NCBI GenBank assembly: GCA_050250895.1 | Contig: JBFWNU010000001.1 | Location: forward strand, 2,406,210-2,470,209 | Reading direction: 5' to 3' | Length of the DNA: 64,000 bases | Source of the DNA: Vulcanimicrobiota bacterium | Lineage (GTDB): Bacteria > Vulcanimicrobiota > Xenobia > Xenobiales > JADMJV01 | In this document: in pieces, positions 1,263 to 41,275 of the stretch | Layout of the letters: each line of letters starts with the position of its first letter | How positions within the stretch are numbered: the first letter of the stretch is position 1 | Position numbers and translations under genes: made by a program | Notes under the pieces: model-generated | What the model saw: only the letters and a program-made list of their open reading frames with translations | Told to the model about the DNA's origin: nothing | Database searches by the model: none

Positions 1263-1354
1263 CTGTGTTCTCCTGTGTGTGTCAGTAGTGAGAAAGCTGG
1301 ACCATGTCAGTGTAGCGGCTGAGGCCGGACTCCGGGTTGCCGGATTGTAAAAAA

Positions 1355-8726: not shown

Positions 8727-10324
8727 TGAAACAGCGCGGCCTCAGTCTGGGCACGGTCATCCTGGTGGTGAGCTTGTTGGCGACCCTGGGGCTGACCCTG
8801 GCCGCCGCCAGCGTTTCTCACCTGCATCTGATGACCCGGGCCAGCAACGCCCGCCGGGCCGAGAGCGTGGCTCGTTCGACGGTGGCTCAGGCGGTCGAAC
8901 ACATCTTGAGTTCCGTCGATCAGCGCTACGGCACCGCCGGGGAGAGCCTCGAGGTAGAGTTTGCCAGTGGGGTCGGTTATCTCAGCTTCGATCCCGACGA
9001 AGCCCGCCGCCACGGACTGCCGCGGAGTTGGAACAACATCGAGTCAAGCACCTCTTTGACCACTCCCGAGTCGGTCGTAGTGCCGGGCGAGTCGATCTAT
9101 CTGGTGGCCAGCGGCACGGTGGGCGGGGTCACCCGGCGGGTCGAAGCCATCTATCACATGGGGTCGTTTCCCTATGCCCTGGCTGCGGCCGGACCCATCG
9201 TGGCCCGGGGCGGGCTGACCGTCTCGGGGCTGGGTGAGAACGACGGTGGCGGCGGCCTGCCACCGCGAATCGAGTTGGCTCCGGCCGATCTGCACTCGAA
9301 TGCGCCCGGAGCCAAAGCCATCGAATTGGGAGCCGACACCCATATCGGGGGAGACGTGCAGGCAGTGGGAGATGTCTTTCTCGATCCGGCCGCGCCGGCG
9401 GACTCGATCGAGATTCAGGGCGAACTGCGCCATCGCGCTTCGGTGGTGGCCCTGCCCGCCTTCGAGCCCGAGCACTACGACCCGTCGGTGCTGGGGCGTA
9501 GCTTCGAGCCTTTCGACGACTCGCCCTATAGCGGCGAACTAGAAGTAGAGGGAGTGGCTCGGGCCAATCACGGCCTCGAGGTCAACGGCGGTCTGAGCCT
9601 GGACTCTGCCCTGTTGTTTGTCGAGGGCGACCTGATCGTCAACGGTCCCCTCAAAGGCAAGGGCATCCTGGTGGTGACCGGCCGGACCGTCATTCGGGGA
9701 GGGGCCGATTTCCAGACCGGCAACAAGCTGGCCCTGATGAGCCAGGGGCCGGTGGAGATTTCGGGCAGCGGTCAGGCGGGCTCGTTCTTCCAGGGGATGA
9801 TTCACACCCACTCGAGCTTTCAAGCCGACCGCATTACCGTGGTCGGCTCGTTGATCGCGGCCGGCAACCAGGCCGATGTGGTCTCGCTGCGCGAAGTCCG
9901 CATCATCCGGCCCGAGGGCTCGGGGGCCGTCGAGGTGGCCCTGGGTGGCGGTACCAATCCCGCCGGTGATGTGGAAGTCAGTGCCAGTGTGGCCATGCCC
10001 GGGGGCTTCAGCCGCTTGCTCACCCTCAGAGGCAGGGTGAGCGGACAGGCCTTTCGCGGAATCTGGCTGGTGGACGGAACACCGGTGCTCGACGAGCCTC
10101 TGCGCATCGACAAACAGTTGGCCGAGACTCTGACCTACTTCATTTCACAGATACCAGAGCTACGCGGGGCCATTCGTCCCCGGGATGCGGCCGACCAGCT
10201 GGCCAATCAACTCATCAACGGAGGCCCCCAAAACACCGGTAATCCGGCCGTCGTGATGGCCGACCCCAGCCGGCTGCTCAGCCCGCTCGAGCGCATGCGG
10301 CTGCTGGTCTGGAGAACCCAATGA
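8726..10324 (+). CDS. PilX-like pseudopilin-related protein (large minor-pilin-like)
   Basis: GTG start overlapping the upstream stop by 1 nt. N-terminus VKQRGLSLGTVILVVSLLATLGLTLAAASV resembles the PilX N-terminal domain (no Glu+5). ~530 aa, Gly-rich beta-type repeats. Confidence 0.65.
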   Translation: MKQRGLSLGTVILVVSLLATLGLTLAAASVSHLHLMTRASNARRAESVARSTVAQAVEHILSSVDQRYGTAGESLEVEFASGVGYLSFDPDEARRHGLPRSWNNIESSTSLTTPESVVVPGESIYLVASGTVGGVTRRVEAIYHMGSFPYALAAAGPIVARGGLTVSGLGENDGGGGLPPRIELAPADLHSNAPGAKAIELGADTHIGGDVQAVGDVFLDPAAPADSIEIQGELRHRASVVALPAFEPEHYDPSVLGRSFEPFDDSPYSGELEVEGVARANHGLEVNGGLSLDSALLFVEGDLIVNGPLKGKGILVVTGRTVIRGGADFQTGNKLALMSQGPVEISGSGQAGSFFQGMIHTHSSFQADRITVVGSLIAAGNQADVVSLREVRIIRPEGSGAVEVALGGGTNPAGDVEVSASVAMPGGFSRLLTLRGRVSGQAFRGIWLVDGTPVLDEPLRIDKQLAETLTYFISQIPELRGAIRPRDAADQLANQLINGGPQNTGNPAVVMADPSRLLSPLERMRLLVWRTQ

Positions 10325-10707
10325 GGCGGCGCGGGCTGAGCTTGATCGAAACGGTGGTGGCGGCCGCCCTGGTCGGACTGGTCGTGCTGCTGGTCACCAA
10401 TCTGTTTCCCCTTTCCCTGACCGGCGTGCGCCAGCAAGAGCAGTATTTGCAGGCGGATCTACTGGCCGGCTCGGTGCTGGCCGATCAGCAGATGGTGCCC
10501 TTCGTGGAGTTGACACCGGGCGACCGCCAGGTGCTCGACCCGGTCGAAGTCGATGGGGTGGCCTATACCGCCACTGTCGAAATCGATAGGGTCTCGGGCA
10601 GCGACCCGGCCTATCTTAAAGCGGTGCGCGTGACCGTGAACTGGCAGTATCAAGCCCAGGCGCGACAGACGGTGGAGGAGGTCTGGGTCGATGCGGTCGG
10701 GCGTTAG
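10321..10707 (+). CDS. prepilin-type N-terminal cleavage/methylation domain pseudopilin (GspI/PilV-like)
   Basis: MRRRG|LSLIETVVAAALVGLVVLLV is a class III signal peptide with Glu at +5. ATGA overlap with the upstream gene. Confidence 0.75.
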   Translation: MRRRGLSLIETVVAAALVGLVVLLVTNLFPLSLTGVRQQEQYLQADLLAGSVLADQQMVPFVELTPGDRQVLDPVEVDGVAYTATVEIDRVSGSDPAYLKAVRVTVNWQYQAQARQTVEEVWVDAVGR

Positions 10708-11293
10708 GGCCTATACCCTGGTCGAGGTGCTGGTGGCAGCCTTTCTCATGAGCCTGTTGCTGACCGTGCTGTTTCAGGTGCTTTTTCCGCTGGTGCGAGC
10801 CTCTCACCGCAGCTACCGGCGCATCTCGATGCAAGAGGTGGGAGGTTTGGCTCTCGACCGCCTGGCCCGCCAGTTCGAGGCCACTCCGGCCGTGGGCGTC
10901 ACCCCGCCTCAGACAACGGCCCAGCAGGTAGTGCTGGCTCTTCATCCCATCGATTCGGTCTCGAGCAGCGGTCGCCAGTTCTATGCCGACCACCTCGAGG
11001 TGTTTCACTGGCGACGCGACAGCGGCCGCCTCATCCATGAAACCTGGACCGAGGCGGGCGTAGACCTCAGTCTCGAGCCACGCCGCCTGACCGCCATCGA
11101 ACTTCAGGCCGTTGTCGACAGCGACAACGGCAGCGAGCGGGTGCTGGCTCATGGAGTGACCAGCTTTGTGGTCGCCGCGGCTGGTAGCGGACCCGGCCTG
11201 GTATTGCCGCTCACGGTGACGCTCAAGCTCGAAGACCAGAGCGACAGGCTCGAACTGAGCCGGCGTCTTTACCTGATGAACTCTAGCCTCTAA
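10691..11293 (+). CDS. prepilin-type pseudopilin (GspJ/PilW-like)
   Basis: MRSGVRA|YTLVEVLVAAFLMSLLLTVLF with Glu at +5 and a hydrophobic helix. 17-nt overlap with the upstream gene. Confidence 0.65.
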   Translation: MRSGVRAYTLVEVLVAAFLMSLLLTVLFQVLFPLVRASHRSYRRISMQEVGGLALDRLARQFEATPAVGVTPPQTTAQQVVLALHPIDSVSSSGRQFYADHLEVFHWRRDSGRLIHETWTEAGVDLSLEPRRLTAIELQAVVDSDNGSERVLAHGVTSFVVAAAGSGPGLVLPLTVTLKLEDQSDRLELSRRLYLMNSSL

Positions 11294-15831: not shown

Positions 15832-16377
15832 TTAGTAAACCGGGTGGTAGAGCATGGCCACCGCTCCCGAGTCGAACTCGACCTGGTCGACCAGTTGCAG
15901 GTCGACCAGTTTCGAGAGCCCGGCCAAGAGGTAGGGACCGTGGCCGGCCAGTCTAGGTTGCACCACGAATTCGTACTCGTCGATCAAACCGAGTTCGGCC
16001 AGGGCCAGGGGAAGCTGGACACCTCCGGTCAAGAGTCCTCGACCGGGTTGTTGCTTGAGTCGGGTAACCGCCTTCGCCAGGTCGCCCTGGAGCAGTTCGG
16101 CGTTCCAGTCGACCTCGGTCAAAGTGCTAGAAACGACATATTTCTTGGCCGCCTCGATGGTGTGGGCGAAAGGCTCGGTCCAGGCGGGCATCGCTTGGGA
16201 CCGGGGCGAGCGAAAGGCCGTCTCCATCATTTCGTAGGTCACTCGGCCGTAGAGCAGGGCCTCGGCGCGTTCAATATTGGCGGTGTGGAAGCGATGCAAT
16301 TGCTCGTCGGGCACGCCGACCCGGTGATCGCAGCAGCCGTCTAAAGTGACATTGATGCAGTAGCGAAGAGGTTGCAT
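15832..16377 (-). CDS. dihydrofolate reductase-like protein (RibD C-terminal domain family)
   Basis: Internal Met (MQPLRYCINVTLDGCCDHRVG...) of the 202-aa ORF. Pattern ...LYGRVTYEMM...KKYVVSSTL...GGVQLPLALAELGLIDEYEFVVQPRLAG is typical of the RibD_C/DHFR-like family. Confidence 0.65.
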   Translation of the reverse strand: MQPLRYCINVTLDGCCDHRVGVPDEQLHRFHTANIERAEALLYGRVTYEMMETAFRSPRSQAMPAWTEPFAHTIEAAKKYVVSSTLTEVDWNAELLQGDLAKAVTRLKQQPGRGLLTGGVQLPLALAELGLIDEYEFVVQPRLAGHGPYLLAGLSKLVDLQLVDQVEFDSGAVAMLYHPVY

Positions 16378-16418
16378 GGCGCCGCGACTTCGCGACCTGC
16401 TATGGACGACCCCTGCCC

Positions 16419-16434
16419 GGTGATCGGTGTCACG
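16419..16434. promoter_or_regulatory. CRP/FNR-like palindromic site GGTGA-N6-TCACG, conserved upstream of cassette copies A and C
   Basis: ggtgatcggtgtcacg matches the TGTGA-N6-TCACA architecture at 4/5 + 4/5. An identical 16-mer occurs at 24228-24243. Confidence 0.4.
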
Positions 16435-16603
16435 CGGCAAAAGGAGTAGAGATAGCTACATGTCGCAGTCTAGATGTACCATTGGTTCGCAGAACGTGTA
16501 TTTTGTTGGTTGTATGGGTGTCCAAAGTTTGAAAAATAGTAAACAGAGGTTTTGTGTGGGGGGTAAAGAAGCACTGGGTTCGAGCATCCTTGGGGAGGTG
16601 GTC

Positions 16604-19600
16604 TTGGTTCGAGCGTCTCGTTTCTTTCTTCTTTTGCTGGGCTTGCTTTTGGTTGGCTGTGAATCCGGCCAACTGGTGGATGAGATCGAAAGAGGGCAAT
16701 CTCGGCCAATCTCCCATCGAAATCGTGTGTTGGCCGAATTGACTCTGCAAACCGAGAATGGCCCCTACAAGCTTGTGAAGGGGAGGGGGCTCATTCCGGC
16801 CGAAAATAGCCCGGTGCCCCAACCGCGTACGGGGGATGGCGTTCGCGCCAGAACCGGCGAGAGCATTCTGGCCGCGACTGAGCTGCCCCCGGAGTATTTT
16901 TTCGGAGCCCACTATCAGTTCGATGTGGACAAACGCAACTTCTTCATCGGCGAGGAGCCGGTAGGGACGGCCTGTGTTCGCTACAATAGCGAAGAATTCA
17001 ATAATCTTCCCCACAGCAGCGAAGCCTATCGCTTTGGCAACCTGGAGTTCGCTAGCCTGGGGGTGGCTGTCGGGCCTAACCAGTTTCCAGGCACCGCCTC
17101 GACCACCATGGTGGTGAGCACGCCCGCCGGGATTGAAGAGATCGAGATCCCTAAGATGGACGGCGACACAATCACCGTTTCACCACCAATCACCGTTCGG
17201 ATGGACTATGCCTACACCCCCATCCCCAATTCTAGCCTCTACTATGGGCGAACCGAGACGTTCGTCAACGGAAACTCGGTAGCGATCAGTTCTTCAAACT
17301 TCACCATTGGCGTGAGCGTCGAGCTGCCCTCGGTGCATGGGATCTATACTACCGAAAATCACGCCGAGCGACAGACCTATGCCAACGCGCCTTTCCAGCT
17401 TCAGGACAGCTTTGACGTGGGCAGTCAGGTCTTTGCTCGCAAGTTGGAGTTTGCAGATGACTTCACTCCGATGGAGTTCACGCCGGGCCAACCAGTGACG
17501 ATCACCAACAGCTTCCGCTGGGACTCCGGCCCAACTGATGTCGTCGATGCCCGGTGGGAGGTCATCGTCGAAGACACCCTGGAGAATCAGTTTACGAGAT
17601 TTCAAGAAGGCACCGGGACCGACATTTCGGCCACCTTCGACCTGTCTGATGTTTTGGCTCGCGGCCAGGTGCCCCGGCGTTACGTTCTCATCCCTGCCGG
17701 CAGCCCACTCGAGGCCAGTATCAAGCAGGAGCAGGCACGGTTGCGAGCTCGAGGCGAGGACATTCGCGCCCAGACGGACGTGATACCCCTGACCTATCGG
17801 GTCATCGCGAGCGCCGAGGCCTATCCTCGTAGCCGCGTCTTTCCGCTGGTCGGCTCGCAGTTTTATCAGGCACGCTACTACGCGGTGAATAGCCAGATCT
17901 CACCGGCCTTGCGCATCCGCGACATCAACATTGATCCCAACCCGTTCGAGCCCAGCCCCCCGGAGGTGGCCCCCGAAGACCGTCAGGTGGCCGTCATCTC
18001 GGCCTACGTCGACGCCAATGGCTTCGACGGTGGCTATGTGTTGGTCGAGCCTCGAATCTATGACCAGGCCGGCAACCTGGTGAAGACGTTCGAGGACCAG
18101 TATCCCATCGACTACGTCGAGTTGGAATGGGACGGCTATGACGATGAGGGAAACCCACTTGACCCGCAGGAGTTTCTGGTGGAGCTGCAAGCCCACGTCT
18201 GCGATTTCAGCGGACCGGCTCGCGAGATCTTGGCCGAGATTGCGCCCCAGACTCTGCAATTGGGTAGTTGTTCTCTGACGGGGGATGTCGCCCAGGCGCC
18301 CTTAGTGACCGGAGGGGCCCAGGGCGGTGAACTCAAGGTCTATGCAATCAACAAATTGATCGCCTGGGGTAAGAATCCGACCAGTGCTATCGTGACTAGA
18401 GCTCAGGAGGGCTTTCTGCGGGATGTCTATGCCGCTGGTCCTACGGCCCCGGGTGATCCCCAGCCCGCAAAGCTGAAATTGGAAGCCAGCAACCTCGGGC
18501 CGGTTGGAGGTGACGTTACTGTCGTCGCACGCGGGAATGTGAGCCAGGTGGACTCAGTAGCCGTCACACTAACAGACGACGACCACGACGGAACTTACAC
18601 GGGTGAGTTGTTGTTGACACCAGATTTCATTAAGGTCGGCGGGCCACTCACGGATGTGCAGGGTGAAGCGGGACGGATGACCTTCAGTGTCGGCGAGCGG
18701 CTCAACAATGAGGGTGGAGTTACCGCCGCGATCTTTGCCAACCTTCTCTCCGCCCTCGGTCCCGAATTCTACCCTTACCCCAAGCCCGCGATTTCTCTAG
18801 GCAAATTCGAAGAAGATTTGCTCGGGAGCCAGCTCACTCTCGCCAATGACGATGAGGCCACCGCCACGGCAAACAACCTGGCCAGTACTGGCTTTGAGGC
18901 GCTAACCCTAACGCTCAGGGTAGGAAGCGATGTGGTGGTTACAACCAAGGCCAAGGTTCGCCATCCCGCTGATGTTCTATTCTGGAATTTCCATGGTCTA
19001 CGCCACGGCTCACTCAGCCCCGAAAGCGAGATTGCCAAGAGAGAGAACCGGCTTCCTACGATACTCCTCACGCCCGAAGACTTTGTAGTGAAGCCGGTCG
19101 CAAGAACCGTAATGTTTGCCGCTTGCGATGTGCTGTGCCTGAACGACTACAACGGTGCGTGGCCCAACGAGTCGAACTTTGGCGGACGCCGCTGGTATGC
19201 CGCGATGGACACCCCGGGACACAACACAGTCTTGCTAGGATTCACGGCCCAGACAGGTGCAACTCTTACAACCTCTGAGGTCATCGAACTCTACGGAAAA
19301 AGGATTGATGACTATATCGCGGCGGGCGAAACGGACAGGAGAAAGATTCAGGCGCTGGCCTGGGTTAGGGCGAATCTCGAGGTTGGTCTCAACCTTCAAG
19401 CCGACGGCTCAACGGGTCCTGTGGATGCACTAAGAAGCCTGCAACTTCGTGCTTGCGCCTATGCAGCCGATAGCACGGGAGAGTACTTTTACTACATCCC
19501 TGTGCAGCATCGGCCCACTCAGGACCTTGCTCTGGTCTTGCAGAACGTCGAGACCACACCCGTGGTCAAAACTGCCGAGGGCATCTACAGAGTGCGCCGC

Positions 19601-19705
19601 GAGCATTGGGGTGAACCGGTCCTTTTCGACGTTAGGAGGCCAAAAGATGCACAACTTGTACTCGAAGTGGTGCGACACAACGATGGGACGGTGGAATTGC
19701 GATGA
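16604..19705 (+). CDS. large secreted lipoprotein (cassette A gene 1) with FlgD-Ig-like domain
   Basis: TTG start 5 nt after GGAGG. Lipoprotein signal MVRASRFFLLLLGLLLVGC (lipobox LVGC). FlgD-Ig-like block IRDINIDPNPFEPSP...YVLVEPRIYDQAGNLVKTFEDQYP...ELEWDGYDDEGNPLDPQEF. About 1033 aa; the start is inferred from conservation with copy C. Confidence 0.65.
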   Translation: MVRASRFFLLLLGLLLVGCESGQLVDEIERGQSRPISHRNRVLAELTLQTENGPYKLVKGRGLIPAENSPVPQPRTGDGVRARTGESILAATELPPEYFFGAHYQFDVDKRNFFIGEEPVGTACVRYNSEEFNNLPHSSEAYRFGNLEFASLGVAVGPNQFPGTASTTMVVSTPAGIEEIEIPKMDGDTITVSPPITVRMDYAYTPIPNSSLYYGRTETFVNGNSVAISSSNFTIGVSVELPSVHGIYTTENHAERQTYANAPFQLQDSFDVGSQVFARKLEFADDFTPMEFTPGQPVTITNSFRWDSGPTDVVDARWEVIVEDTLENQFTRFQEGTGTDISATFDLSDVLARGQVPRRYVLIPAGSPLEASIKQEQARLRARGEDIRAQTDVIPLTYRVIASAEAYPRSRVFPLVGSQFYQARYYAVNSQISPALRIRDINIDPNPFEPSPPEVAPEDRQVAVISAYVDANGFDGGYVLVEPRIYDQAGNLVKTFEDQYPIDYVELEWDGYDDEGNPLDPQEFLVELQAHVCDFSGPAREILAEIAPQTLQLGSCSLTGDVAQAPLVTGGAQGGELKVYAINKLIAWGKNPTSAIVTRAQEGFLRDVYAAGPTAPGDPQPAKLKLEASNLGPVGGDVTVVARGNVSQVDSVAVTLTDDDHDGTYTGELLLTPDFIKVGGPLTDVQGEAGRMTFSVGERLNNEGGVTAAIFANLLSALGPEFYPYPKPAISLGKFEEDLLGSQLTLANDDEATATANNLASTGFEALTLTLRVGSDVVVTTKAKVRHPADVLFWNFHGLRHGSLSPESEIAKRENRLPTILLTPEDFVVKPVARTVMFAACDVLCLNDYNGAWPNESNFGGRRWYAAMDTPGHNTVLLGFTAQTGATLTTSEVIELYGKRIDDYIAAGETDRRKIQALAWVRANLEVGLNLQADGSTGPVDALRSLQLRACAYAADSTGEYFYYIPVQHRPTQDLALVLQNVETTPVVKTAEGIYRVRREHWGEPVLFDVRRPKDAQLVLEVVRHNDGTVELR

Positions 19706-21555
19706 AAACGAAGATCGGGATGGTGACATTGACGCTTTGCCTTCTAAGCGGGGTCTGGGCTCAGGAGCCAGAGTTCCCGGCAGCGGACCCCGTGCGCCGC
19801 GCGATTCAGAGTTATGAACTACATGATTTGGATCGTGCCCTGGCCGAGTTCCTGGCCCTTGCAGAGAGTCATCGGGGAACTCCGGTGGGCTCAAATTGTC
19901 TCTTCTGGGCGTCAGATACTGCTCTACTCGCGGGGGACCAGGAGCAGGCACTGGCCATCCTTAACCGCATCACGCAAGAATACGCTGGCACTCACATGGA
20001 GCTTTCGGCAAGGCTGCGGCTCATTGAGCTTGTGCCTCCGAGCACTGGAGACGGAGCGACAGAAGCTTACGACGAACTCGCACAGCAGAATGGGGCACCT
20101 CCCCTTGCGGTGTTGATTGACCCGGCCCGGAAACTAGAGAACACGATCGCAATCCGGGCGTTGCCAGAAGAGTCGAGGAAGGGTCTCAGGTTGCTATACG
20201 TGACAGTCCTTGGCGAATTGAGTTTTCATCCCCCGCAGGAGGCCGCTGTCCTCGGGCAGGTTTTGCGGGGAGCGTTGGACCGTGATGGCGGCGCCGAGTT
20301 CTACGGCTCGTTGTATAACACCGCGAGGCGTTCACACGAGCGACGCCATCTCTGGTCGCCCACTCAGGAAGACTTTCAGAATCCCGTCGTGTCGCCTCTG
20401 AACCCTAGCGATGGTAGCACTGTCGCCCCAGGCGGAATGCTAGAGGCCCAGCTTTACATGGAAGACTTCTATGCTATGGGATTGGATCTGGCTACGCTGC
20501 GTGTTTCTCTGGACGGTCAGGATGTTACCGATTCTTCCACTTTCGAGTGTTCGGCCGGCCCGGAGTTCGTAGACGGGCAACCCTGGGAGGTGATTACCGT
20601 CCGCTCGCCCATGGCGAACCTATCGAACGGAACACACACGGCCACCGTTACCTGTCAGGTATACCTCTATCCGGGCCAGGGCCCGGGGCTGACGACGAAG
20701 ACCTGGTCGTTCACTATCGCCAATCAGGCCTCTGAGGCAGCGCTCTATCCATCGAAGGACTCGACCCTCCGACTCCGCGACCCCCATCTCAACGAGGGAG
20801 CCAACCCTAGACTCATCCTGGAGAAGATCCAGGGTAAGACCACTCACGCCCTGGTGGGCTTTGACCTGTCCCAACAGAACCTGACCGGCCTGACTTCGGC
20901 CAGCCTGGTCTTCACCATCGACCCCAGCGACTCTCCCACCGGCTGGGGCAATGGGCGCAACGTCCTCGCAGCCCCGATCTCGACCGGCTGGCTGGAGGGG
21001 AACGGCGTCGACTTCGGCGTGCCCAACGCGCAGAAGACCAGCGGGTCCGGCCCGGGCGTGACCTGGTTCAGTCCTGTCGATGAAGACATCAGCAACAACT
21101 ATGCCAACTCGGCCGTGAATTGGAACGGGGCCGGTGCGGCCAGCGGCCCTCCGACAGCCTTGGCGGTGCAAATCCATAACCATCAAACCGGAGAGGTCTC
21201 CTTCGATGTCACCCAGGATGTCCTCAACGGATCCTCGAGCTGGTTGGTGAGAAGAGAGGACGAGAACGTCGGCTCGCAAGTCCACTTCTACTCCAGGGAA
21301 GGTGGCGGAGCCTCAGCCGGCCCGCGCCTGGTCCTTCACTACGGTGCCTCGGCCAACAAACCCGCAGGAGACGCTCTGTTGGCCAGGGCCTGGGACACCC
21401 CGGTCGCGGTCCTTCGCAATCTCGCCGGGCTCGGGCTGTCGGGTGGCCCGATGACAAACTTGCTGATCCTGCAAGCCCGTTCGTCGGGCCTCGACATCCT
21501 GAGTGCGGGATTGCGCAGTCTGGTCGCCCGGCGCGAGATGGCCCTGCTCCTTTAG
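19702..21555 (+). CDS. secreted protein with TPR-like N-terminal region and DNRLRE-like C-terminal domain (cassette A gene 2)
   Basis: Signal peptide MKTKIGMVTLTLCLLSGVWAQ; ATGA overlap with gene 1. C-terminal pattern SKDSTLRLRDPHLNEGANPRLIL...ALVGFDLS...SASLVFTID...GWGNGRNV fits the DNRLRE/CBM96-like signature (D-x-T-L...N-x-G...L-x-L...F-D-L-S...A-S-L). Confidence 0.7.
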   Translation: MKTKIGMVTLTLCLLSGVWAQEPEFPAADPVRRAIQSYELHDLDRALAEFLALAESHRGTPVGSNCLFWASDTALLAGDQEQALAILNRITQEYAGTHMELSARLRLIELVPPSTGDGATEAYDELAQQNGAPPLAVLIDPARKLENTIAIRALPEESRKGLRLLYVTVLGELSFHPPQEAAVLGQVLRGALDRDGGAEFYGSLYNTARRSHERRHLWSPTQEDFQNPVVSPLNPSDGSTVAPGGMLEAQLYMEDFYAMGLDLATLRVSLDGQDVTDSSTFECSAGPEFVDGQPWEVITVRSPMANLSNGTHTATVTCQVYLYPGQGPGLTTKTWSFTIANQASEAALYPSKDSTLRLRDPHLNEGANPRLILEKIQGKTTHALVGFDLSQQNLTGLTSASLVFTIDPSDSPTGWGNGRNVLAAPISTGWLEGNGVDFGVPNAQKTSGSGPGVTWFSPVDEDISNNYANSAVNWNGAGAASGPPTALAVQIHNHQTGEVSFDVTQDVLNGSSSWLVRREDENVGSQVHFYSREGGGASAGPRLVLHYGASANKPAGDALLARAWDTPVAVLRNLAGLGLSGGPMTNLLILQARSSGLDILSAGLRSLVARREMALLL

Positions 21556-21597
21556 AAGCCCGAGCAACCCTGACAGGGCTCGAACAAGCCCTCGCAG

Positions 21598-21739
21598 AAC
21601 CGGTTCAAATGGCACTCAAAGCCGTTCCGCCTCGCATGGATGCCCAGGGGCGCCCTTACCTGGTCTGAGGACCTCTCCGACGAGATGTTCCGCTCCATCC
21701 TGCGCGGCGACTGCGGCCCCGAGCTTCAGGCCCTCTACA
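21598..21739 (+). pseudogene. remnant of the small AbiEii-partner gene (homolog of 29266..29574), frameshifted and truncated by the duplication junction
   Basis: atggcactcaaagccgttccgcctcgcatggatgcccaggggcgcccttac... is identical to 29266 onward except for a 5-nt deletion (ccttacctggtctga vs ccttacttcctctggtctga). Homology ends at ...ctctaca (21739). Confidence 0.5.
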
Positions 21740-22330
21740 GTTTGCCGCTTGCGATGTGCTGTGCCTGAACGACTACAACGGTGCGTGGCCCAACGAGTCG
21801 AACTTTGGCGGACGCCGCTGGTATGCCGCGATGGACACCCCGGGACACAACACAGTCTTGCTAGGATTCACGGCCCAGACAGGTGCAACTCTTACAACTT
21901 CTGAGGTCATCGAACGCTACGGGAAATGGATTGACGACTATATTGCGGCGGGCGAAACGGCAGGAGAAAGATTCAGGCGCTGGCCTGGGTTAGGGCGAAC
22001 CTCGAGGTTGGTCTCAACCTTCAACCCGACGGCTCAACGGGCCCTGTGGATGCACTAAGAAGCCTGCAACTTCGCGCTTGCGCTTATGCAGCCGACAGCA
22101 CGGGAGAGTATTTCTACTACATCCCTGTGAAACACGAGCCTACCAAAGACCTGGACCTGATTCTCCAGAATGTGGAGACTACTCCGAGAGTCAAGACCGC
22201 CGAGGGCATCTATAGAGTGAGCCGCGAACATTGGGGTGACCCGGTCCTTTTCGACCTTAGGAGGCCCAAAGATGCGCAACTTGTACTCGAGGTGGTGCGA
22301 TACGACGATGGGACGGTGGAATTGCGATGA
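21740..22330 (+). pseudogene. 3' fragment of a cassette gene-1 copy (duplicate of 19114-19705), frameshifted
   Basis: First ~180 nt identical to 19114 onward, then ~90% identity. A 1-nt deletion (aacggcaggag vs aacggacaggag) splits it into two ORFs (21756..22058, 22046..22330). No 5' part or signal peptide. Confidence 0.7.
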
Positions 22331-24078
22331 AAACAAAGATCGGGATGGTGACATTGACGCTTTGCCTTCTAAGCGTGGCCTGGGCCCAGGAGCCAGAGTT
22401 TCCAGAAACAGACCCTGTGCGCCACGCTATTCAGAGTTACGAGTTGCATCAGTGGGATCGTGCCCTGGCCGAGTTCCTGGCCCTCGCAGAGAGTCATCGG
22501 GGAACGCCGGAGGGCTCAAACTGTCTCTTTTGGGCGTCAGATGTCGCTTTGCTCGCGGGGGACGAGGCGCAATCGTTGGCTATCCTCAACCGCATCGCGC
22601 AAGAATACGCCAGCACCAACATGGGACTCTTGGCGAGGCTCCGTCTCATTGAGCGGACATCCCCGAACTCCAGAGAAGAAAGGGTCGCTGCCTACGACCA
22701 ACTCGCCCAAGCGAAAGGCGCGCCTTCTCTCGCCATCTTGATCGACCCGGCCCGGAAAGTGGAAAACATGATGAAAATCCGGTCATTGCCAAGGGAATCC
22801 AGAAACGGTCTCAGGATGCTCTACGCGAGAGTCGTTGACGAATTGGGTTTTCACCCCCCGCAGGAGGCCGCTGTCCTCGGGCAGGTCTTGCGGGGAGCGT
22901 TGGACCGTGATGGCGGCGCCGAGTTCTATGTCTCGTTGTATGACGCGGCGAGGAACTCACACGAGTTGAGGGGTCTCTGGTCGCCCACTCAGGAAGACTT
23001 TCAGAATCCCGTCGTGGCGCCACTAAACCCTAGCGATGGTAGCACTGTCGCCCCAGGCGGAATGCTAGAGGCACAGCTTTACATGGAAGACTTCTATGCT
23101 ATGGGATTGGATCTGGCTACGCTGCGTGTTTCTCTGGACGGTCAGGATGTCACCAATTCTTCGACTTTCGAGTGTTCGGCCGGCCCGGAGTTCGTAGACG
23201 GGCAACCCTGGGAGGTGGTTACCGTTCGCTCGCCCATGGCGAACCTGTCGAACGGAACACACACGGCCACCGTTACCTGTCAGGTATACCTCTATCCAGG
23301 CCAGGGCCCCGGCATCACAACGAAGACATGGTCGTTCACTATCGCCAATCAGGCCTCTGAGGCAGCGCTCTATCCATCGAAGGACTCGACCCTCCGCCTA
23401 CGCGACCCCCATCTCAACGAAGGCGCGAACCCTCGGCTCATCCTGGAGAAGATCCAGGGCAAGACCACTCGTGCTCTGGTGGGCTTTGACATGTCCCAAC
23501 AGAATTTGACCGGCCTGACTTCGGCCAGCCTGGTCCTCACCGTCGACCCCAGCGACTCTCCCACCGGCTGGGGCAACGGGCGTAACGTCCTCGCGGCTCC
23601 GATTTCCACCGGCTGGCTGGAGGGGAACGGCGTCGACTTCGGCGTGCCCAACGCGCAGAAGACCAGCGGGTCCGGCCCGGGCGTGACCTGGTTCAGTCCT
23701 GTCGATGAAGACATCAGCAACAACTATGCCAACTCGGCCGTGAATTGGAACGGGGCCGGTGCGGCCAGCGGCCCTCCGACAGCCTTGGCGGTGCAAATCC
23801 ATAACCATCAAACCGGAGAGGTCTCCTTCGATGTCACCCAGGATGTCCTCAACGGATCCTCGAGCTGGTTGGTGAGAAGAGAGGACGAGAACGTCGGCTC
23901 GCAAGTCCACTTCTACTCCAGGGAAGGTGGCGGAGCCTCAGCCGGCCCGCGCCTGGTCCTTCACTACGGCGCCTCGGCCAACAAACCCGCAAAAGACGCT
24001 CTGTTGGCCAGGGCCTGGGACACCCCGGCCGCGGTCCTTCGCAATCTTGCCGGGCTCGGGGGACTGGTGGCCCGATGA
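22327..24078 (+). CDS. cassette B gene 2: secreted TPR-like/DNRLRE-like protein, C-terminally truncated by a frameshift
   Basis: N-terminus ~85% identical to 19702..21555; C-terminal domain nearly identical. A 1-nt deletion near 24058 (ctcgggggactgg vs ctcgggctgtcgggtgg) gives an early stop; the homologous stop is at 24176-24178. Confidence 0.65.
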   Translation: MKTKIGMVTLTLCLLSVAWAQEPEFPETDPVRHAIQSYELHQWDRALAEFLALAESHRGTPEGSNCLFWASDVALLAGDEAQSLAILNRIAQEYASTNMGLLARLRLIERTSPNSREERVAAYDQLAQAKGAPSLAILIDPARKVENMMKIRSLPRESRNGLRMLYARVVDELGFHPPQEAAVLGQVLRGALDRDGGAEFYVSLYDAARNSHELRGLWSPTQEDFQNPVVAPLNPSDGSTVAPGGMLEAQLYMEDFYAMGLDLATLRVSLDGQDVTNSSTFECSAGPEFVDGQPWEVVTVRSPMANLSNGTHTATVTCQVYLYPGQGPGITTKTWSFTIANQASEAALYPSKDSTLRLRDPHLNEGANPRLILEKIQGKTTRALVGFDMSQQNLTGLTSASLVLTVDPSDSPTGWGNGRNVLAAPISTGWLEGNGVDFGVPNAQKTSGSGPGVTWFSPVDEDISNNYANSAVNWNGAGAASGPPTALAVQIHNHQTGEVSFDVTQDVLNGSSSWLVRREDENVGSQVHFYSREGGGASAGPRLVLHYGASANKPAKDALLARAWDTPAAVLRNLAGLGGLVAR

Positions 24079-24227
24079 CAACCTTGCTGATCCTGCAAGC
24101 CCGTTCTTCGGGCCTCGACATCCTGAGTGCGGGATTGCGCAGTCTGGTCGCCCGGCGCGAGATGGCCCTGCTCCTTTAGGATTCTCGGATTTGACAATCC
24201 GGCCGAACGCCGGGCTGCACGATGCCC

Positions 24228-24243
24228 GGTGATCGGTGTCACG
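24228..24243. promoter_or_regulatory. second copy of CRP/FNR-like site ggtgatcggtgtcacg
   Basis: Identical 16-mer to 16419-16434, within a ~30-nt conserved block (cccggtgatcggtgtcacgcggcaaaa). Confidence 0.4.
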
Positions 24244-24412
24244 CGGCAAAATGAGTAGCGCCAGCTACATGTCGTAGCCTGATTGTTCTTTCGGTTTGCA
24301 AGTCGCATCTTCTGGTAGTTTGAGGGGTGGCAAAAGTTTGAAAAATAGTAAATAGAGGTTTGGTGGGGGGGGTAAAGAAGCACTGGGTTCGAGCAATCCT
24401 TGGGGAGGTGGT

Positions 24413-27341
24413 CTTGGTTCGAGCGTCTTGGAGTCGATCCGCCGTGTTAGGTTTCTTGGCTGGCTGGTTTGCCATAGGCCTTGTCGCTTGCGAGAGTTCG
24501 AGGGTGCTCGACCAAGTGGAAACACCCGCACCAGGTCGAACACCTCGAACAGGGGCCGAGTCCTGGCCGAGTTGGCCCTCAGGACCGACGAGGGAGAGTT
24601 CAAAGTCGTGAAAGGCGCCGGCAAGGTTGCCCTGGAGAAGCAGCCGCGCGAGGAGAAAGTCGCGACCAGGGGCGTGTTGGACAACCCGGGCTATTCTTTC
24701 TTCGGGCACCGGCAATACGGCGACTTCGAGTTTTTTCGCCTCGACGAGGACAACCCGGTAGGCTATCTTCCTTACTCCAGCAGCGATGCGGTTTCGAGCC
24801 GGCTGCCAGGGATTTCCGGCGGCGGCTACCGATATCGCATGATGGGATTCGTTAGCCTGGGCGTGAGCGGCGATCCTCATGTACCCGGCCAATCTTCGGT
24901 CGAACTGGTCGTCTCGACACCCGACGGCATCGATGAGGTCGAGGTGCCGACCCTCGATGGCGACACGGTCACGGTGGCTCCGCCCATTACCCTGCGCCGG
25001 GTTCAAACCGTGACCAGCACCGGTGGAGTGGTGTCTCAGCGGGTCGAGACCTTCGTCAACGGAGTCTCGCTCGGGGTCGACTCGTCGAGTTATCTGGAAA
25101 TTGGGTTGAAAATTCCGTCGGTGTCCGGCGACTACCAGGTGAGCACTCACGGCCAGCGCTCGATCAACTATGACGAGCCGGTCAACGATAGCTACGATCT
25201 GGCCTGGACCATCCCGGTTCGCAAACTGCAGTTGGCCGAGAGCCTGGGGCCGGTCGAGGCGACCCCGGGACAGCCCATCATCATCAGCAATCGCATCACC
25301 TGGGACAGTCCGGGCGAGGTTGTGGATGCCAAATGGACTGTGACCCTCAGTGATGTCTTCGACGAGAACTATGAATTCTACGAGGGCACAGGAGAGATGT
25401 CTCGGCCACCTTTGACACCTCGAGTTTTCAGGCCAGAGGGACGACGCCGCGACGTTACCTGCTGATTCCCGCCGGTAGCTCGCTGGTGGACATGCTCAAG
25501 GCCAAGCAGGCCGAACTTCTTGCTCGGGGCGAAGACATCCGGGCCCAGACCGACCTGGTTCCTTTGGTCTACGAAATCTTCGCCAGCGCCGAAGCCTTCC
25601 CGCAGCAGGAAGTCTTCCCGAACTCTGGGGTGCAATTCTATCAGGCTCGCTACTTTCTGCTCAGCGAGTCGCAGGCCGAGCCGGCCATCCGCATTCGCGA
25701 TCTGAGCGTCGACCCCAATCCCTTCGAGCCCAGCCCGGTGGCCCCCGAGGACCGTCAGGTGGCGACGATCTCGGCCTATGTCGACGCGGTGGGCTTCGAC
25801 GGCGGCTATGTGGTGGTCGAGCCTCGCATTTACGACCAATCGGGAAACCTGGTGCGAAGGTTCGAAGACCAGTATCCCATCGACTACTTTGAGCTGGAGT
25901 GGGACGGTTATGACGATGAGGGCAATCGGGTCGAGCCTCAGGAGATCACGATTCAACTGAGTGCCCACGTCTGTGACTTCGCGGGCCTGGCTCGTGAGAT
26001 CGCGGCAAAGTTATCGCCTGAGATCTTAGCACAGGGTTGTTCCCTCCCGTCAGACGCCTTTCTGGTGGCTCAAGTTGGAACGCCACTAAATGGTGTGATT
26101 CAGGTACGTTCTGGAACTAACCTGGTTGCTCAAAGCTTTCATGGTACTCCGAGTTCGGCCGATCTGGCCAGGTTGAGAACAGTCTTTCCCGACGGGCGCA
26201 ACGGCGTCAACAACACGTTAGAGATATCCGCTTCCGGGTTCACCGGGAATCCGCCATCGAGCATTGAGATTGTTCTCGAAGGGTCTGCGAGCAGCACTTC
26301 ATCGGCCCCTATGATTCTAAATCAGGCCAACAACTATACCACAAGTTTTACGCTGACACCTGGCCTGATCAGAACCGGCCAGCTTGGCCCTAGCATCACG
26401 TTTTCGGACTCGGTGTTGAGCGTGACGGGCGGAGCGCAGCTGTTGTTCGAAGGGTCGCTCATGGGAAGCGGCGTTCCGTATCCGGGCCCAGACCCGACCT
26501 CTTTGGGAACCTACAAGGATGGGTCCTCGGCCTCAGAGGCAGAAAATACCGCGAGCAACGTTTCCAGCCTGGGGTATGAAACCGTAGAGATTAGAGGGAC
26601 GGCGGTTCATTTTCAAGCATTGCAAGGCTTAAGGTGAGACACCCGTCCGAGGTCTTTTACTTCGTGCAACATGGATCCGGAACCGGAGAGATCGATTTGG
26701 GGGGTAACCAATCCTTGAACCCGGGTCAGAATATTACCCGTTCGGATTGCACCTCTTTGAAAACTCTGATATTCACAGCCTGTCGGGGCTTGGTGCTCAA
26801 TGATTATAACAATCTATATGAAAACCATCGCCCATTCGCGGATATGGCGACCCGAAGGCAATTGGACTTCGGGGGTCCCAAATGGTACAACATCACAGGT
26901 GCATCCGACGCGTTTGCCCCGTTTTCCCCAACCGAACGGAGGACAGTGCTTCTGGGATTCAACCACGTTGCACCCGCTAAGCTGGCCGCGGATATTCTCG
27001 ATGTCTATCGACTTGCCTTGGGAGATTTGCGAGGAAAGATTAACCAGGGCGACCTAACTGTCAAGAATCTTGAACCGCTGGCCTGGATGAAGGCCAACCT
27101 AGCGGTTCTCCAGGGCGCGAGTGGCTCAGAACTGGCGAGAGGCTTGTGCCTGAACGCGTGCGCTTACGATACTGAGTATTACTATTATATACCGTTTGAT
27201 CGATTCGACCCGACCGAAGACCCGTTTCGTTCAACGCGCGAGGTTCATCGTGTTCCGCGTGGAGACTGGAACACAGATCTCACTCGAGTTGAGTGGATTA
27301 CGACGCCGAAGCGGGTCGGCAGGATGGTTACCATACCGTAG
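24413..27341 (+). pseudogene. cassette C gene 1: large lipoprotein homolog of 16604..19705, disrupted by at least three frameshifts
   Basis: Signal peptide/lipobox frame (VLGFLAGWFAIGLVAC) differs from the body frame (24428..25465). A 1-nt deletion near 25395 (gagatgtctcggccacc vs gaccgacatttcggccacc). A -1 shift at 26634/26637. The three ORFs together are ~55-70% identical to copy A. Confidence 0.6.
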
Positions 27342-27349
27342 GAGGATAC

Positions 27350-29212
27350 GTGCAAGGATTGAGATTGATTTTGATAATTCTCTTACTCTCCATCTCAGCT
27401 ATTGCTCAGCATGTAGGTGACTACCAGGAATTTGTGGCCACGCCGGAGTTTCTGGAGGCTGACCGCCTGGCGGGATTAGGTCAATTGGATGAAGCGCTCA
27501 CGATTTTTGAGAATATCGCGACACAGAACCCCCGTACGACTTTAGGCGCTCGAAGTCTTCTCGCGGCGATAGCTTTGAGAACGAGCCGCGCCAATAATGA
27601 CCGTTTGATCAACCGACTAATTACGGAGTTCAGTGGCTCCCGCTACGAGATCATCGGCAAACTCGTCCAGACGGCCGCTGGATTTACCGATGATGATGAA
27701 GCGCGCATAGCCGCACAAGATGCATTGGCTCAGAGTTTTGGAGGGCCCGGACTCTCCTCGATTCTCAACTCCGAAGACCGGAACACTCTTGTAGCAGAAT
27801 TGCGCGCGCTACCGTTTGAGACTCGCATGGGGTTAGCGCCTGTCTATTACTCTAACTTTGGAGGTCTTCGCGGCCTCGGTAGAGTCGATGACGCCATCAG
27901 TCTCGCGAGGTTCAATCAGGATGCTTATGCTGATGTAGAGGAAACCCTCGAGCACTCATTTAGAGGAGATCTACGTTATGCTCTCATGGTCAAGCAATAT
28001 GGGGGAGGCGTCTCAATAGAAGCACAACCGTCGTCAGACCCGGTGGTCGTGCCGACTTCGCCCAGCCCAAACCAAGTGCTGACAAGCCTTTCGACGCTTG
28101 ATTTCTCGATAAACGGGGGGGATTTTCGTCAACCGGGTGTGGACTTAAACAGCCTCGTCGTGACTCTGGATGGTGAGCCGCTTACAAGTTTGTCATTCCG
28201 CTTTGAGAGTGGGATTCTCGCTGAGAATGAAGTTTACGAGCGCCTTCTCGTCTCGCTGACTGTCCCGGACCTGTCACCTGGCCAGCATCAGGTGACGGTC
28301 AAAGCCAGCGTCAGGGGATACCCTGGGACAGGAGCCGGAACCACCACAGCCTCTTGGAGCTTCGAAATAGCCAGCGCCCAATCCACCCAGACTCTACCAG
28401 TCACGAAAGACTCCACCCTCCGCCTACGCGACCAACATCTCAACGAGGGAGCCAACCCGCGGCTCATCCTGGAGAAGATCCAGGGCAAGACCACTCACGC
28501 CCTGGTGGGCTTTGACCTGTCCCAACAGAATTTGACCGGCCTGACTTCGGCCAGCCTGGTCCTCACCGTCGACCCCAGCGACTCTCCCACCGGCTGGGGC
28601 AACGGGCGTAACGTCCTCGCGGCTCCGATTTCCACCGGCTGGCTGGAGGGGAACGGCGTCGACTTCGGCGTGCCCAACGCGCAGAAGACCAGCGGGTCCG
28701 GCCCGGGCGTGACCTGGTTCAGTCCTGTCGATGAAGACATCAGCAACAACTATGCCAACTCGGCCGTGAATTGGAACGGGGCCGGTGCGGCCAGTGGGCC
28801 ACAGACCGCCTTGCCGGTGCAGCTCCACAACCATCAGGCCGGAGAGGTCTCGTTTGATGTCACCCAGGATATCCTCAGCGGGTCCTCCAGCTGGTTGGTG
28901 AGACGAGAGGACGAGAATGTCGGCTCGCAGGTCCACTTCTACTCCAAGGAAGGCGGCGGAGCCTCAGCCGGCCCGCGCCTGGTCCTTCACTACGGCGCCT
29001 CGGCCAACAAACCCGCAAAAGACGCTCTGTTGGCCAGGGCCTGGGACACCCCGGTCGCGGTCCTTCGCAATCTCGCCGGGCTCGGGCTGTCGGGTGGCCC
29101 GATGACAAATTTGCTGATGAGCACCCTGCAAGCCCGATCGTCGGGCCTCGACGTCCTGAGTGCGGGGTTGCGCAGTCTGGTCGCCCGCCGCGAGATGGCC
29201 CTGCTCCTCTAG
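27350..29212 (+). CDS. cassette C gene 2: secreted protein with distinct helical N-terminal region and DNRLRE-like C-terminal domain
   Basis: GTG start after AGGAGG. Signal peptide VQGLRLILIILLLSISAIAQ. C-terminal ~280 aa nearly identical at nucleotide level to copies A and B (STLRLRDQHLNEGANPRLIL...LVGFDLS...). Confidence 0.65.
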   Translation: MQGLRLILIILLLSISAIAQHVGDYQEFVATPEFLEADRLAGLGQLDEALTIFENIATQNPRTTLGARSLLAAIALRTSRANNDRLINRLITEFSGSRYEIIGKLVQTAAGFTDDDEARIAAQDALAQSFGGPGLSSILNSEDRNTLVAELRALPFETRMGLAPVYYSNFGGLRGLGRVDDAISLARFNQDAYADVEETLEHSFRGDLRYALMVKQYGGGVSIEAQPSSDPVVVPTSPSPNQVLTSLSTLDFSINGGDFRQPGVDLNSLVVTLDGEPLTSLSFRFESGILAENEVYERLLVSLTVPDLSPGQHQVTVKASVRGYPGTGAGTTTASWSFEIASAQSTQTLPVTKDSTLRLRDQHLNEGANPRLILEKIQGKTTHALVGFDLSQQNLTGLTSASLVLTVDPSDSPTGWGNGRNVLAAPISTGWLEGNGVDFGVPNAQKTSGSGPGVTWFSPVDEDISNNYANSAVNWNGAGAASGPQTALPVQLHNHQAGEVSFDVTQDILSGSSSWLVRREDENVGSQVHFYSKEGGGASAGPRLVLHYGASANKPAKDALLARAWDTPVAVLRNLAGLGLSGGPMTNLLMSTLQARSSGLDVLSAGLRSLVARREMALLL

Positions 29213-29265
29213 AAGCCCGAGCAACCCTGACAGGGCTCGAACAAGCCCTCGCAGAACCGTTTCAA

Positions 29266-29574
29266 ATGGCACTCAAAGCCGTTCCGCCTCGCATGGATGC
29301 CCAGGGGCGCCCTTACTTCCTCTGGTCTGAGGACCTCTCCGACGAGATGTTCCGCTCCATCCTGCGCGGCGACCGCGGCCCCGAGCTTCAGGCCCTCTAC
29401 ACTGGAAGGCTGCTGCGGGAAGCCAGAATGGCCGAAGTCTGGTGGTACCTCAAACCTCAGGATATAGCCGACCGCTGGCCTGAGGTGGCGCGTCATCTCG
29501 GCCGGGCTCGCCAGTTCTGGCATGAGCTACTGGAGGCCTGGCGTGAAGCCGGACGCGTTTCCTGGCAACCTTAG
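29266..29574 (+). CDS. small protein, putative partner/antitoxin of the downstream AbiEii-family nucleotidyltransferase
   Basis: 102-aa ORF overlapping the downstream NTase gene by ~50 nt. A disrupted copy sits behind cassette A. Function inferred only from gene context. Confidence 0.45.
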   Translation: MALKAVPPRMDAQGRPYFLWSEDLSDEMFRSILRGDRGPELQALYTGRLLREARMAEVWWYLKPQDIADRWPEVARHLGRARQFWHELLEAWREAGRVSWQP

Positions 29575-30187
29575 CCCGCTCCAGGCCGAACTTCTGAAGG
29601 CCTTTCAGGGTGAGGGGTTCTTTCTGACGGGGGGAAGCGCCCTGGTTGGGTTCTACGGACATGACCGGGTGACCCGAGACCTGGACCTCTTCACTCGCAG
29701 CCACGAGGCCTTCGAAGAAGGTCCGGGTTGGCTGGGCGCAGCTGTCGAGGCCCTCGGAGCCAGCCTGGATCCGATCAGGACCTATCCGGCCTTCCGCCGC
29801 TATCAGGTATGCCGCGGCGAGGAGCAGACTCTGGTGGACCTGGTCTTCGAGCCGGTTCCGCCTGTCTATCCGCCGCGACCCATTCCAGGCTCCCGCCTGG
29901 CCCTTGACCTGCCCGACGAGATTGCGGTCAACAAACTGTGCGCTCTGGTTGGTCGGGGAGAACCTCGCGATCTGGCCGACCTGCTATTCTTGGATCGGTT
30001 CGGCGTGGATCTCGGGCGGGCTCTAGAGTTGGCCTCACACAAGGACGCAGGAGTCGGCCCTGATACCCTGTTGCTGGTGCTGCCCGCCGTTCCGCTTTCG
30101 GGCGACCCGGAGAAATTGGCGGCCCTGCGTGATTTTCGAGACGACTGGATCGGTCGCCTCAGGCTAGAAGTTCTACCGCCGCAGTGA
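29522..30187 (+). CDS. nucleotidyltransferase, AbiEii/AbiGii (DUF1814) toxin family
   Basis: FFLTGGSALVGFYGHDRVTRDLDLF matches the AbiEii N-terminal motif (GG[ST]AL...YG..R.[ST].DLD[FL]); 221 aa. Confidence 0.65.
   Translation: MSYWRPGVKPDAFPGNLSPLQAELLKAFQGEGFFLTGGSALVGFYGHDRVTRDLDLFTRSHEAFEEGPGWLGAAVEALGASLDPIRTYPAFRRYQVCRGEEQTLVDLVFEPVPPVYPPRPIPGSRLALDLPDEIAVNKLCALVGRGEPRDLADLLFLDRFGVDLGRALELASHKDAGVGPDTLLLVLPAVPLSGDPEKLAALRDFRDDWIGRLRLEVLPPQ

Positions 30188-41155: not shown

Positions 41156-41157
<2 letters not shown>
41127..41157. terminator. bidirectional rho-independent terminator hairpin between the saccharopine-DH gene (+) and tRNA-fMet (-)
   Basis: gaaagcccttc-tttt-ggaagggctttc is a perfect 11-bp stem, T-rich on both flanks. 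Confidence 0.6.
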
Positions 41158-41232
<75 letters not shown>

Positions 41233-41246
41233 TCGATTCGGCCTTC

Positions 41247-41275
41247 ATAATAGCAAGCACCTGTTAGGCTGTCAA
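41247..41275 (-). promoter_or_regulatory. sigma70-type promoter for tRNA-fMet: -35 TTGACA, 17-bp spacer, -10 TATTAT, A/T tract upstream
   Basis: Minus strand reads atttttt-ggggg-TTGACA-gcctaacaggtgcttgc-TATTAT-gaaggccgaatcgacg-[tRNA 5' end]. Confidence 0.6.

Follow-up and report, generated by a model that had tools for sequence, protein, structure and literature searches.

An unevenly conserved upstream module shared by tandem two-gene lipoprotein cassettes in an uncultured Vulcanimicrobiota bacterium

We analysed a 64,000-nt stretch of DNA (the window; contig JBFWNU010000001.1) from a metagenome-assembled genome (MAG) of an uncultured Vulcanimicrobiota bacterium, which carries two tandem copies of an uncharacterised two-gene lipoprotein operon, here called cassettes A and C. 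A homologous module of about 208 nt with abrupt edges on both sides precedes the first gene (gene-1) of both cassettes (16411-16618 in A and 24220-24428 in C), and this module is far better conserved than the genes downstream of it, whose encoded proteins share just 31-48% identity. Its 3' part, the leader, contains a very strong Shine-Dalgarno (SD) sequence (GGGGAGGUGGUC) and a TTG start, and reaches into the lipoprotein signal peptide as far as the fifth codon. The module is the conserved 5' module of tandem variable lipoprotein cassettes, a kind of locus that is already known. As the best explanation, to which we assign a probability of roughly 0.55, we propose that it is a lineage-specific, shared promoter, 5' untranslated region (UTR) and translation-initiation module of the tandem cassettes, which would be kept invariant and would also serve as a recombination arm. 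The module consists of the following parts:

16411..16447, + strand: conserved block of copy A, 37 nt, 3/37 differences from copy C; also present in the sister-strain contig L001
16448..16522, + strand: diverged spacer of copy A, 75 nt, 26/75 differences (35%) from copy C, no indels; contains ATG 16460
16523..16603, + strand: conserved leader of copy A, with an AT-rich 5' part, a G-rich and C-poor stretch, box 1 and the SD
16603..16618, + strand: box 2 of copy A (CTTGGTTCGAGCGTCT), which takes in the start codon TTG (16604-16606) and the four codons after it (2-5, V R A S); right end of the module
24220..24256, + strand: conserved block of copy C, with the dyad at 24223-24248; SD-like hexamer degraded to AATGAG
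24257..24331, + strand: diverged spacer of copy C, with the two-codon reading frame ATG TCG TAG
24332..24428, + strand: conserved leader of copy C, with G8 at 24365, box 1 at 24383-24395, SD at 24402-24413, TTG at 24414 and box 2 at 24413-24428

An earlier annotation of this DNA made from its letters alone (the sequence-only reading) had placed the same 16-mer (GGTGATCGGTGTCACG) at 16419-16434 and 24228-24243, and both positions and sequences proved to be correct. Alignment of the two upstream regions also confirmed its description of the leader, i.e. the match between the copies, the AT-richness and the inclusion of the SD and start codon. Over 16523-16618 the leader differs from copy C by four substitutions and one single-base indel in 96 nt (5/96; 95-97% identity), copy C having one additional A after GAGCA, and there are 0/33 differences in 16586-16618. 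The spacer is more diverged than both the leader (Fisher p=6.6e-7) and the block (p=2.5e-3). Directly after codon 5 the similarity drops to the random level, with 48/72 differences between A and C in the following 72 nt. The conservation of the module between A and C is more than chance, uneven, and exceeds that of the genes. Since the near-identical islands surround a spacer that has drifted by 35%, a single recent copying event does not account for this pattern; selection acting directly on the nucleotides, or micro-conversion that occurred repeatedly, fits it better.

The module also stands out in its composition, as the local GC content falls to 0.37-0.42, compared to 0.63 across the window. 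The AT-rich 5' part of the leader in copy A comprises 16523-16556 (AAAGTTTGAAAAATAGTAAA...), and a run of six G is found at 16558-16563. In copy C this run is G8 (24365-24372), the longest homopolymer of the window. Slipped-strand switching at this G-tract was rejected, because G6 and G8 differ by a T-to-G substitution at constant length.

The SD sequence GGGGAGGTGGTC at 16592-16603 is able to pair with the generic 3' end of 16S rRNA (anti-SD) at 12/12 bases, and its GGAGG core is separated from the TTG start by 5 nt. Both copies open with TTG GTT CGA GCG TCT (M V R A S), after which gene-1 A continues into the signal peptide ...FFLLLLGLLLVGC and gene-1 C into ...AVLGFLAGWFAIGLVAC; the signal peptide of gene-1 A is MVRASRFFLLLLGLLLVGC, and the lipoboxes of the two copies are LVGC and LVAC. 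The conserved 3' island spans about -80 to +15 relative to the start codon, and the part from the SD through the weak TTG start to +15 matches the footprint of an initiating ribosome. The leader of copy A contains only 9 C in 81 nt, a composition that fits an open translation-initiation region. The NCBI annotation of gene-1 A begins at ATG 16460 (1081 aa), i.e. 48 codons too early. The GC content of 16460-16603 is flat over codon positions 1/2/3 (0.46/0.44/0.48), and the frame of ATG 16460 is closed in copy C by ATG TCG TAG and interrupted by a 1-nt indel. Therefore, we conclude that the leader is non-coding; a leader peptide or an N-terminal extension was rejected on the basis of this composition and the comparison with copy C.

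Canonical sigma-70 promoters are in use here, as at tRNA-Met (TTGACA-17-TATTAT). The promoter region of this tRNA gene (41233-41290, minus strand) has a T-rich/G-rich upstream tract and is a useful promoter reference for the phylum. The candidates in copy A of the module are weak: TTGTAT (16510-16515) combined with AAAAAT (16532-16537) or AATAGT (16535-16540). When the two copies are compared, the only hexamer pairs found at corresponding sites combine TTGtat/TTGagg with AAAAAT or AATAGT, the latter two being within an invariant AT-rich 20-mer. From this arrangement we infer a weak promoter in the AT-rich part of the leader, which would depend on an activator or an alternative sigma factor and produce a 5' UTR of about 55-60 nt. 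Inspection for sigma-54, extracytoplasmic-function (ECF) sigma and Bacteroidetes-type promoter consensus sequences revealed no match kept in both copies, and these were rejected. An intrinsic terminator in the module was considered and rejected as well, as was an invertible promoter, since no inverted repeats involve the module.

On this view, the 208-nt module would provide the shared 5' region for expression of a two-gene cassette that is tandemly duplicated and recombines. The AT-rich part of the leader would function as a non-canonical core promoter and the remainder as a high-efficiency translation-initiation region, while the upstream block may be an auxiliary protein-binding site. In addition, the block, the leader, a central island and an island at the 3' end of the second gene (gene-2) would be homology arms that allow variable parts of the cassettes to be swapped between copies and strains, as suggested by the fact that these islands are kept identical. 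This reading of the module is ordinary in kind, and its mechanism is inferred. The genes concerned and their immediate upstream neighbour are:

16604-19705, + strand: cassette A gene-1, a 1033-aa lipoprotein; lipobox Cys codon at 16658-16660
19702-21555: cassette A gene-2
21735-22327: cassette B gene-1 remnant, the final ~200 codons only
22327-24078: cassette B gene-2, frameshifted close to its end
24414-27341, + strand: cassette C gene-1, a pseudogene with the signal peptide in one frame, followed by three 1-nt deletions
27293-29212: cassette C gene-2, intact
15832-16377, minus strand: RibD_C/dihydrofolate-reductase-family gene, the divergent neighbour upstream of cassette A

The alignment of A with C revealed four islands of high identity amid a background of ~40%: the block, the leader, a central island at about 17913-18150 (~80%) and 20750-21740 (~95%). 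The last of these comprises the 3' third of gene-2 and the start of an AbiE-type neighbour. The region upstream of cassette C is the end of gene-2 B.

The sequence-only reading regarded both gene-1 copies as intact. This holds for copy A only. Gene-1 C has lost single nucleotides at three places, near 24553 (in a G4 run), 25395 (GAGAGA) and 26610 (in a T4 run); these deletions all shift the frame in the same direction and distribute the gene over four reading frames. These frameshifts were reproduced at 100% in the Logan short-read contigs L022 and L023. Their recurrence in separate short-read assemblies rules out an assembly error and shows that gene-1 C is a true pseudogene. Short-read contigs of the same strain have their ends within the leader (at 16615 and 24399), as is expected at an exact repeat, and look-ups of the exact proteins yielded no contigs other than these.

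The sole close relative of gene-1 was found on Logan contig L001, which originates from another sample and represents a sister strain. The identity of L001 to the window is 94% on the RibD_C side and in the block, and 90% from 16764 on; the intervening 313 nt are absent from its orthologous locus:

16451..16763, + strand: segment absent from L001, 313 nt, comprising the spacer, the leader, the signal peptide and ~50 codons

This segment is flanked by an imperfect direct repeat of ~24 nt (GCAAAAGGAGTAGAGATAGCTACA / GCAAACCGAGAATGGCCCCTACA). Because A and C share the same left junction, the parsimonious reading is that L001 lost the 313 nt by deletion, and the converse, an insertion into an L001-like ancestor, was rejected for the same reason. 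Counting from the end of the block's dyad in L001 (460-520), an AAGGAG SD lies 1 nt, its GGAG core 6 nt and the called ATG ~10 nt downstream. The AAGGAG has been left 4 nt before an in-frame ATG, and the downstream open reading frame (ORF) of 968 aa is still open. Judged from this sequence, the L001 gene-1 may be either a recently dead allele or a cytoplasmic variant. Up to residue ~560 it is ~93% identical to gene-1 A and from there on only ~25%, the switch being located where the central island, taken here as 17913-18250, ends. This inter-strain mosaicism is seen with a single comparison strain.

The wider gene-1 family comprised 39 representatives at E<=1e-3 among 1.84 billion proteins. Those inspected that have a complete N-terminus were all lipoproteins, and the pair of gene-1 and gene-2 is kept as a unit in a distant lineage. 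The upstream regions of the distant loci (436 and 652 nt) had no similarity to the module. Searches for the box-SD-box architecture returned 0 matches in the genome contigs and metagenome contigs scanned, those for the 5' half of the leader 0 matches in the genome contigs scanned, and blastn of the module against plasmids and phages none. Relatives of gene-2 were found on short contigs that end before the leader, and no other close orthologue of the neighbouring RibD_C gene was found. The gene-1 family is tiny and the module lineage-specific.

Several points weigh against the function proposed here. With only two leader copies in one genome, selection and gene conversion are inseparable, and conversion is clearly active: cassettes A, B and C share 93-100% identity in the 3' thirds of gene-2 and the DNA that follows, compared to ~40% for the rest, and the identity of the leader equals that of this 3' island. 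Pseudogene gene-1 C still has an SD/start region that is 33/33 identical to that of A, and for such an intact region before a dead gene, conversion or a very recent decay is a simpler explanation than selection for translation. Furthermore, the module contains no convincing promoter match (sigma-70 score at most 8/12). Finally, it was not found upstream of distant homologues or in the public collections scanned, so that nothing supports deep functional conservation. These conversion signals would equally be expected if the conservation had no function of its own, the islands being the latest gene-conversion or recombination tracts and the module an ordinary promoter region that was merely homogenised. 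We consider this explanation rather unlikely, since a single conversion tract is unable to leave a 35%-diverged, indel-free spacer between near-identical islands, and the right edge of the module lies exactly at +15 of the coding sequence, which is the edge of a ribosome footprint.

Another explanation emerges from the repeats within the leader. As the sequence-only reading had noted, a 'ggttcgagc' motif is repeated: GGTTCGAGC occurs twice in each copy of the module, with 6 matches in the window versus 0.98 expected. It is the core of a 16-nt box, CTkGGTTCGAGCrTCy, present as CTGGGTTCGAGCATCC at 16574-16589 (box 1) and as CTTGGTTCGAGCGTCT at 16603-16618 (box 2). Box 1 precedes the SD and box 2 straddles the start codon; the two boxes match at 13/16 positions and are 29/30 nt apart, a repeat that was equalled by only 6/500 shuffles. 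The likeness of these repeats to a tRNA T-arm, proposed in the same reading, did not hold: neither ARAGORN nor Rfam found a tRNA at the module, and the flanks of GGTTCGAGC are unable to form a T stem, in which 5 bp would close a 7-nt TTCRANN loop. The only tRNA detected by the two methods in the window was tRNA-Met (41156-41232), whose T-arm is unrelated to GGTTCGAGC, and a tRNA remnant or an att site was rejected on these grounds. There was also no support for the proposed structured 5' UTR. When the leader was folded with and without its flanks, it never performed better than dinucleotide shuffles (z +0.29 to +1.51), Rfam contained no relevant family even at E up to 10, and 0 compensatory pairs were seen in the two near-identical leader copies, which are four substitutions apart.

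However, the octamer GUUCGAGC is self-complementary if G-U pairs are allowed, so that box 1 could pair with box 2 over 8 bp and enclose the SD and start codon in a loop. For the 53-54-nt fragment, the centroid structure of both copies was this 8-bp helix, which was also present in the minimum free energy (MFE) structure of copy A. The boxes might therefore be a translational operator that gates ribosome access, either as the GUUCGAGC helix with the SD/start in a 21-22-nt loop or as twin sites for a dimeric RNA- or DNA-binding regulator. The low frequency of such repeats among shuffles, the 100% conservation of both boxes and the overlap of box 2 with the start codon speak for this possibility. 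On the other hand, the overall folding is no better than that of shuffles, other folds compete when the context is longer, Rfam and the regions upstream of the distant homologues contain no comparable element, and the box spacing differs between the copies. For these reasons, we regard an operator of this kind as improbable. An extended version, in which the boxes bracketing the long SD and the start codon would form an undescribed, lineage-specific operator, a hairpin or a dimeric protein would switch the operon, and the module would also be a portable adaptor for new variable cassettes, appears more doubtful still.

The conserved block contains the motif GGTGA-N6-TCACG, which the sequence-only reading interpreted as a CRP/FNR-like site. 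In copy A it is part of an imperfect 26-nt dyad, TGCC-CG-GTGA-TCGGTG-TCAC-GC-GGCA (16414-16439), followed by an SD-like AAGGAG at 16441-16446. The CRP consensus is TGTGA-N6-TCACA, and the FNR half-sites are TTGAT/ATCAA; a site of this type would be expected to be centred near -41.5, -61.5 or a similar position relative to a transcription start. Compared to the CRP consensus, the motif matches at 8/10 positions (4/5 + 4/5) with the correct spacing, and there is no match to FNR. Thus, the half-site core and the 6-bp spacer are those of a CRP operator; the flanks here, however, are GC-rich, the motif is not enriched, and the match is like that of chance dyads. Indeed, with 10-nt arms that are at least 8/10 complementary as the threshold, the window contains 59 dyads of equal quality with an N6 spacer and about 760 across spacers of 0-12 nt, so a 208-nt module is expected to hold a couple of them by chance. 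GTGA-N6-TCAC did not occur in the window beyond the two module copies, and nhmmer and blastn-short likewise returned these two copies only. The 19-mer of the block had 16 matches in metagenome contigs, all in unrelated coding contexts and without similarity in the flanks; by our own reading of the flanks, several of them read in frame as P-V-I-G-V-T. The dyad was not found upstream of the distant gene-1 homologues L024 and L025. Upstream of the latter, by ~230 nt, lies a perfect 18-bp palindrome, TTGATAAATATTTATCAA (L025 2761-2778), with FNR-like half-sites at 8-bp spacing. Among the ~55 ORFs of the window no Crp/Fnr protein (cNMP-binding or HTH_Crp) was detected, the only classical regulator being a TetR protein. 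A hairpin predicted in the block was not significant (z -0.45 to -0.93).

Accordingly, the CRP/FNR site is unproven rather than refuted, and the only evidence that may point to a function of the block is its conservation between A and C. What remains of the proposed shared upstream control is its general part: a selectively conserved module with SD and start makes a shared control of expression plausible, whereas its assignment to a cAMP/redox type was not supported. That a CRP/FNR-family activator acts on the motif, couples both cassettes to cAMP or redox state and works together with a structured leader RNA is very unlikely: the spacing is correct, the motif is retained in A, C and the sister strain, and a module without a strong sigma-70 promoter is compatible with activator dependence, but the dyad is no better than expected by chance, its distance is 177 nt to the start codon and >100 nt to the only hexamers that resemble a promoter, it ends 1 nt before AAGGAG in the sister strain, and has neither further copies nor a Crp/Fnr gene in the window, and the leader is not detectably structured. 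This case calls for caution with regulon predictions from a single dyad of chance quality.

The promoter, 5' UTR and translation-initiation module that we favour can be compared with known loci. In the vsp genes of Mycoplasma bovis, a non-coding stretch of ~70 bp before the start is highly conserved and the rest of the gene is highly variable (PMC3365025). M. bovis vsp and M. agalactiae vpma are likewise tandem lipoprotein paralogues with a conserved upstream non-coding stretch and a variable remainder, and this layout of tandem paralogues, near-identical upstream leader and variable remainder was found here as well. Conservation in vsp extends over the entire signal peptide of 31 aa, whereas here it covers five codons only and the signal peptides diverge after residue 5. 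Switching in vsp is driven by an adjoining site-specific Xer-type recombinase, whereas we found no recombinase domains in the window, no invertible promoter and no conserved signal peptide, and the unit here is a two-gene operon.

The lpl cluster of Staphylococcus aureus contains short conserved islands that are sites of homologous recombination and produce mosaic genes between strains (Tsuru & Kobayashi 2008, PMC2568036). It shares with our locus the tandem lipoprotein paralogues and the conserved islands, and the sister-strain gene-1 changes its partner at the central island. The presence of an inter-strain mosaic breakpoint at a conserved island, as in lpl, was thus observed for L001, a single strain. 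The two differ in that the lpl island is intragenic, whereas the module here is intergenic and consists of the 5' UTR and first codons, with one strain for comparison.

JUMPStart/ops elements are short conserved non-coding 5' leader elements of variable polysaccharide operons. They resemble the module in being the conserved leader of a hypervariable surface locus; as the sequences are not similar and the module lacks an RfaH/ops motif (GGCGGTAG), this likeness may be taken as an analogy only.

Gene-1 A had no convincing sequence match in Pfam, NCBIfam or the PDB, the sole match being a sub-threshold FlgD_ig. Its AlphaFold (AF2) model (confidence score pLDDT 74) consists of a chain of beta-sandwich domains and a C-terminal alpha/beta domain. 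The best Foldseek matches of this model were arrays of macroglobulin domains (complement C5/C3 and bacterial alpha-2-macroglobulins) with template modelling (TM) scores of at most 0.18, a likeness that would indicate only a generic multi-beta-sandwich architecture. The C-termini in the gene-1 family alignment (window ~18800-19700) contain conserved HGxxxG ... TLxxxxCxxLDLxDYNN ... LLGYN ... ACAxDxxxYYYI motifs, which suggests a candidate His/Cys catalytic domain, possibly cysteine-peptidase-like. The gene-2 product, a secreted protein, has a signal peptide and a DNRLRE/CBM96-like domain slightly under the NCBIfam cut-off. Based on the lipoprotein, signal-peptide and domain evidence, we conclude that the products of gene-1 and gene-2 are uncharacterised envelope or surface proteins.

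Further features were noted in and around the cassettes. In gene-2 B the frame shifts ~38 codons ahead of the homologous end, with the ORF ending at 24078 and similarity to gene-2 A running to 24176 in another frame (24060-24176). About 185 nt that follow gene-2 A (21555-21739) and gene-2 C (29212-29401) are 96-99% identical and resemble the beginning of a small gene. Next to this sequence behind cassette C comes a gene for an AbiEii toxin of a type IV toxin-antitoxin system (29522-30187), whereas the copy behind cassette A is joined to the 3' remnant of gene-1 in cassette B. The cassette genes (16427-29212) have a third-position GC content of 0.66-0.73, compared to mostly 0.75-0.84 in their neighbours, which suggests a foreign origin or a different selective pressure. 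A few kb ahead of the cassettes, upstream of a gene for a 1125-aa alpha/beta-hydrolase, are two adjoining small genes with N-terminal methylation (pseudopilin-type) motifs (10321-11293). Elsewhere in the window (1339-1591), an 84-nt unit is present in three tandem copies that are 76-98% identical. They overlap a minus-strand ORF (465-1514) at its 5' end, and this ORF had no match in Pfam.

The module does not open a long-standing question. The practical gain of the analysis is that the annotated start of gene-1 A can be corrected, and that gene-1 C and the sister-strain allele are flagged as decayed. If our interpretation is true, it would provide a first view of how a surface-protein locus is expressed and diversified in an uncultured bacterium of the Vulcanimicrobiota (Eremiobacterota), where islands for regulation and recombination stay invariant and the cassettes between them change fast. 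Such a layout is known from pathogens, e.g. Mycoplasma and Staphylococcus.

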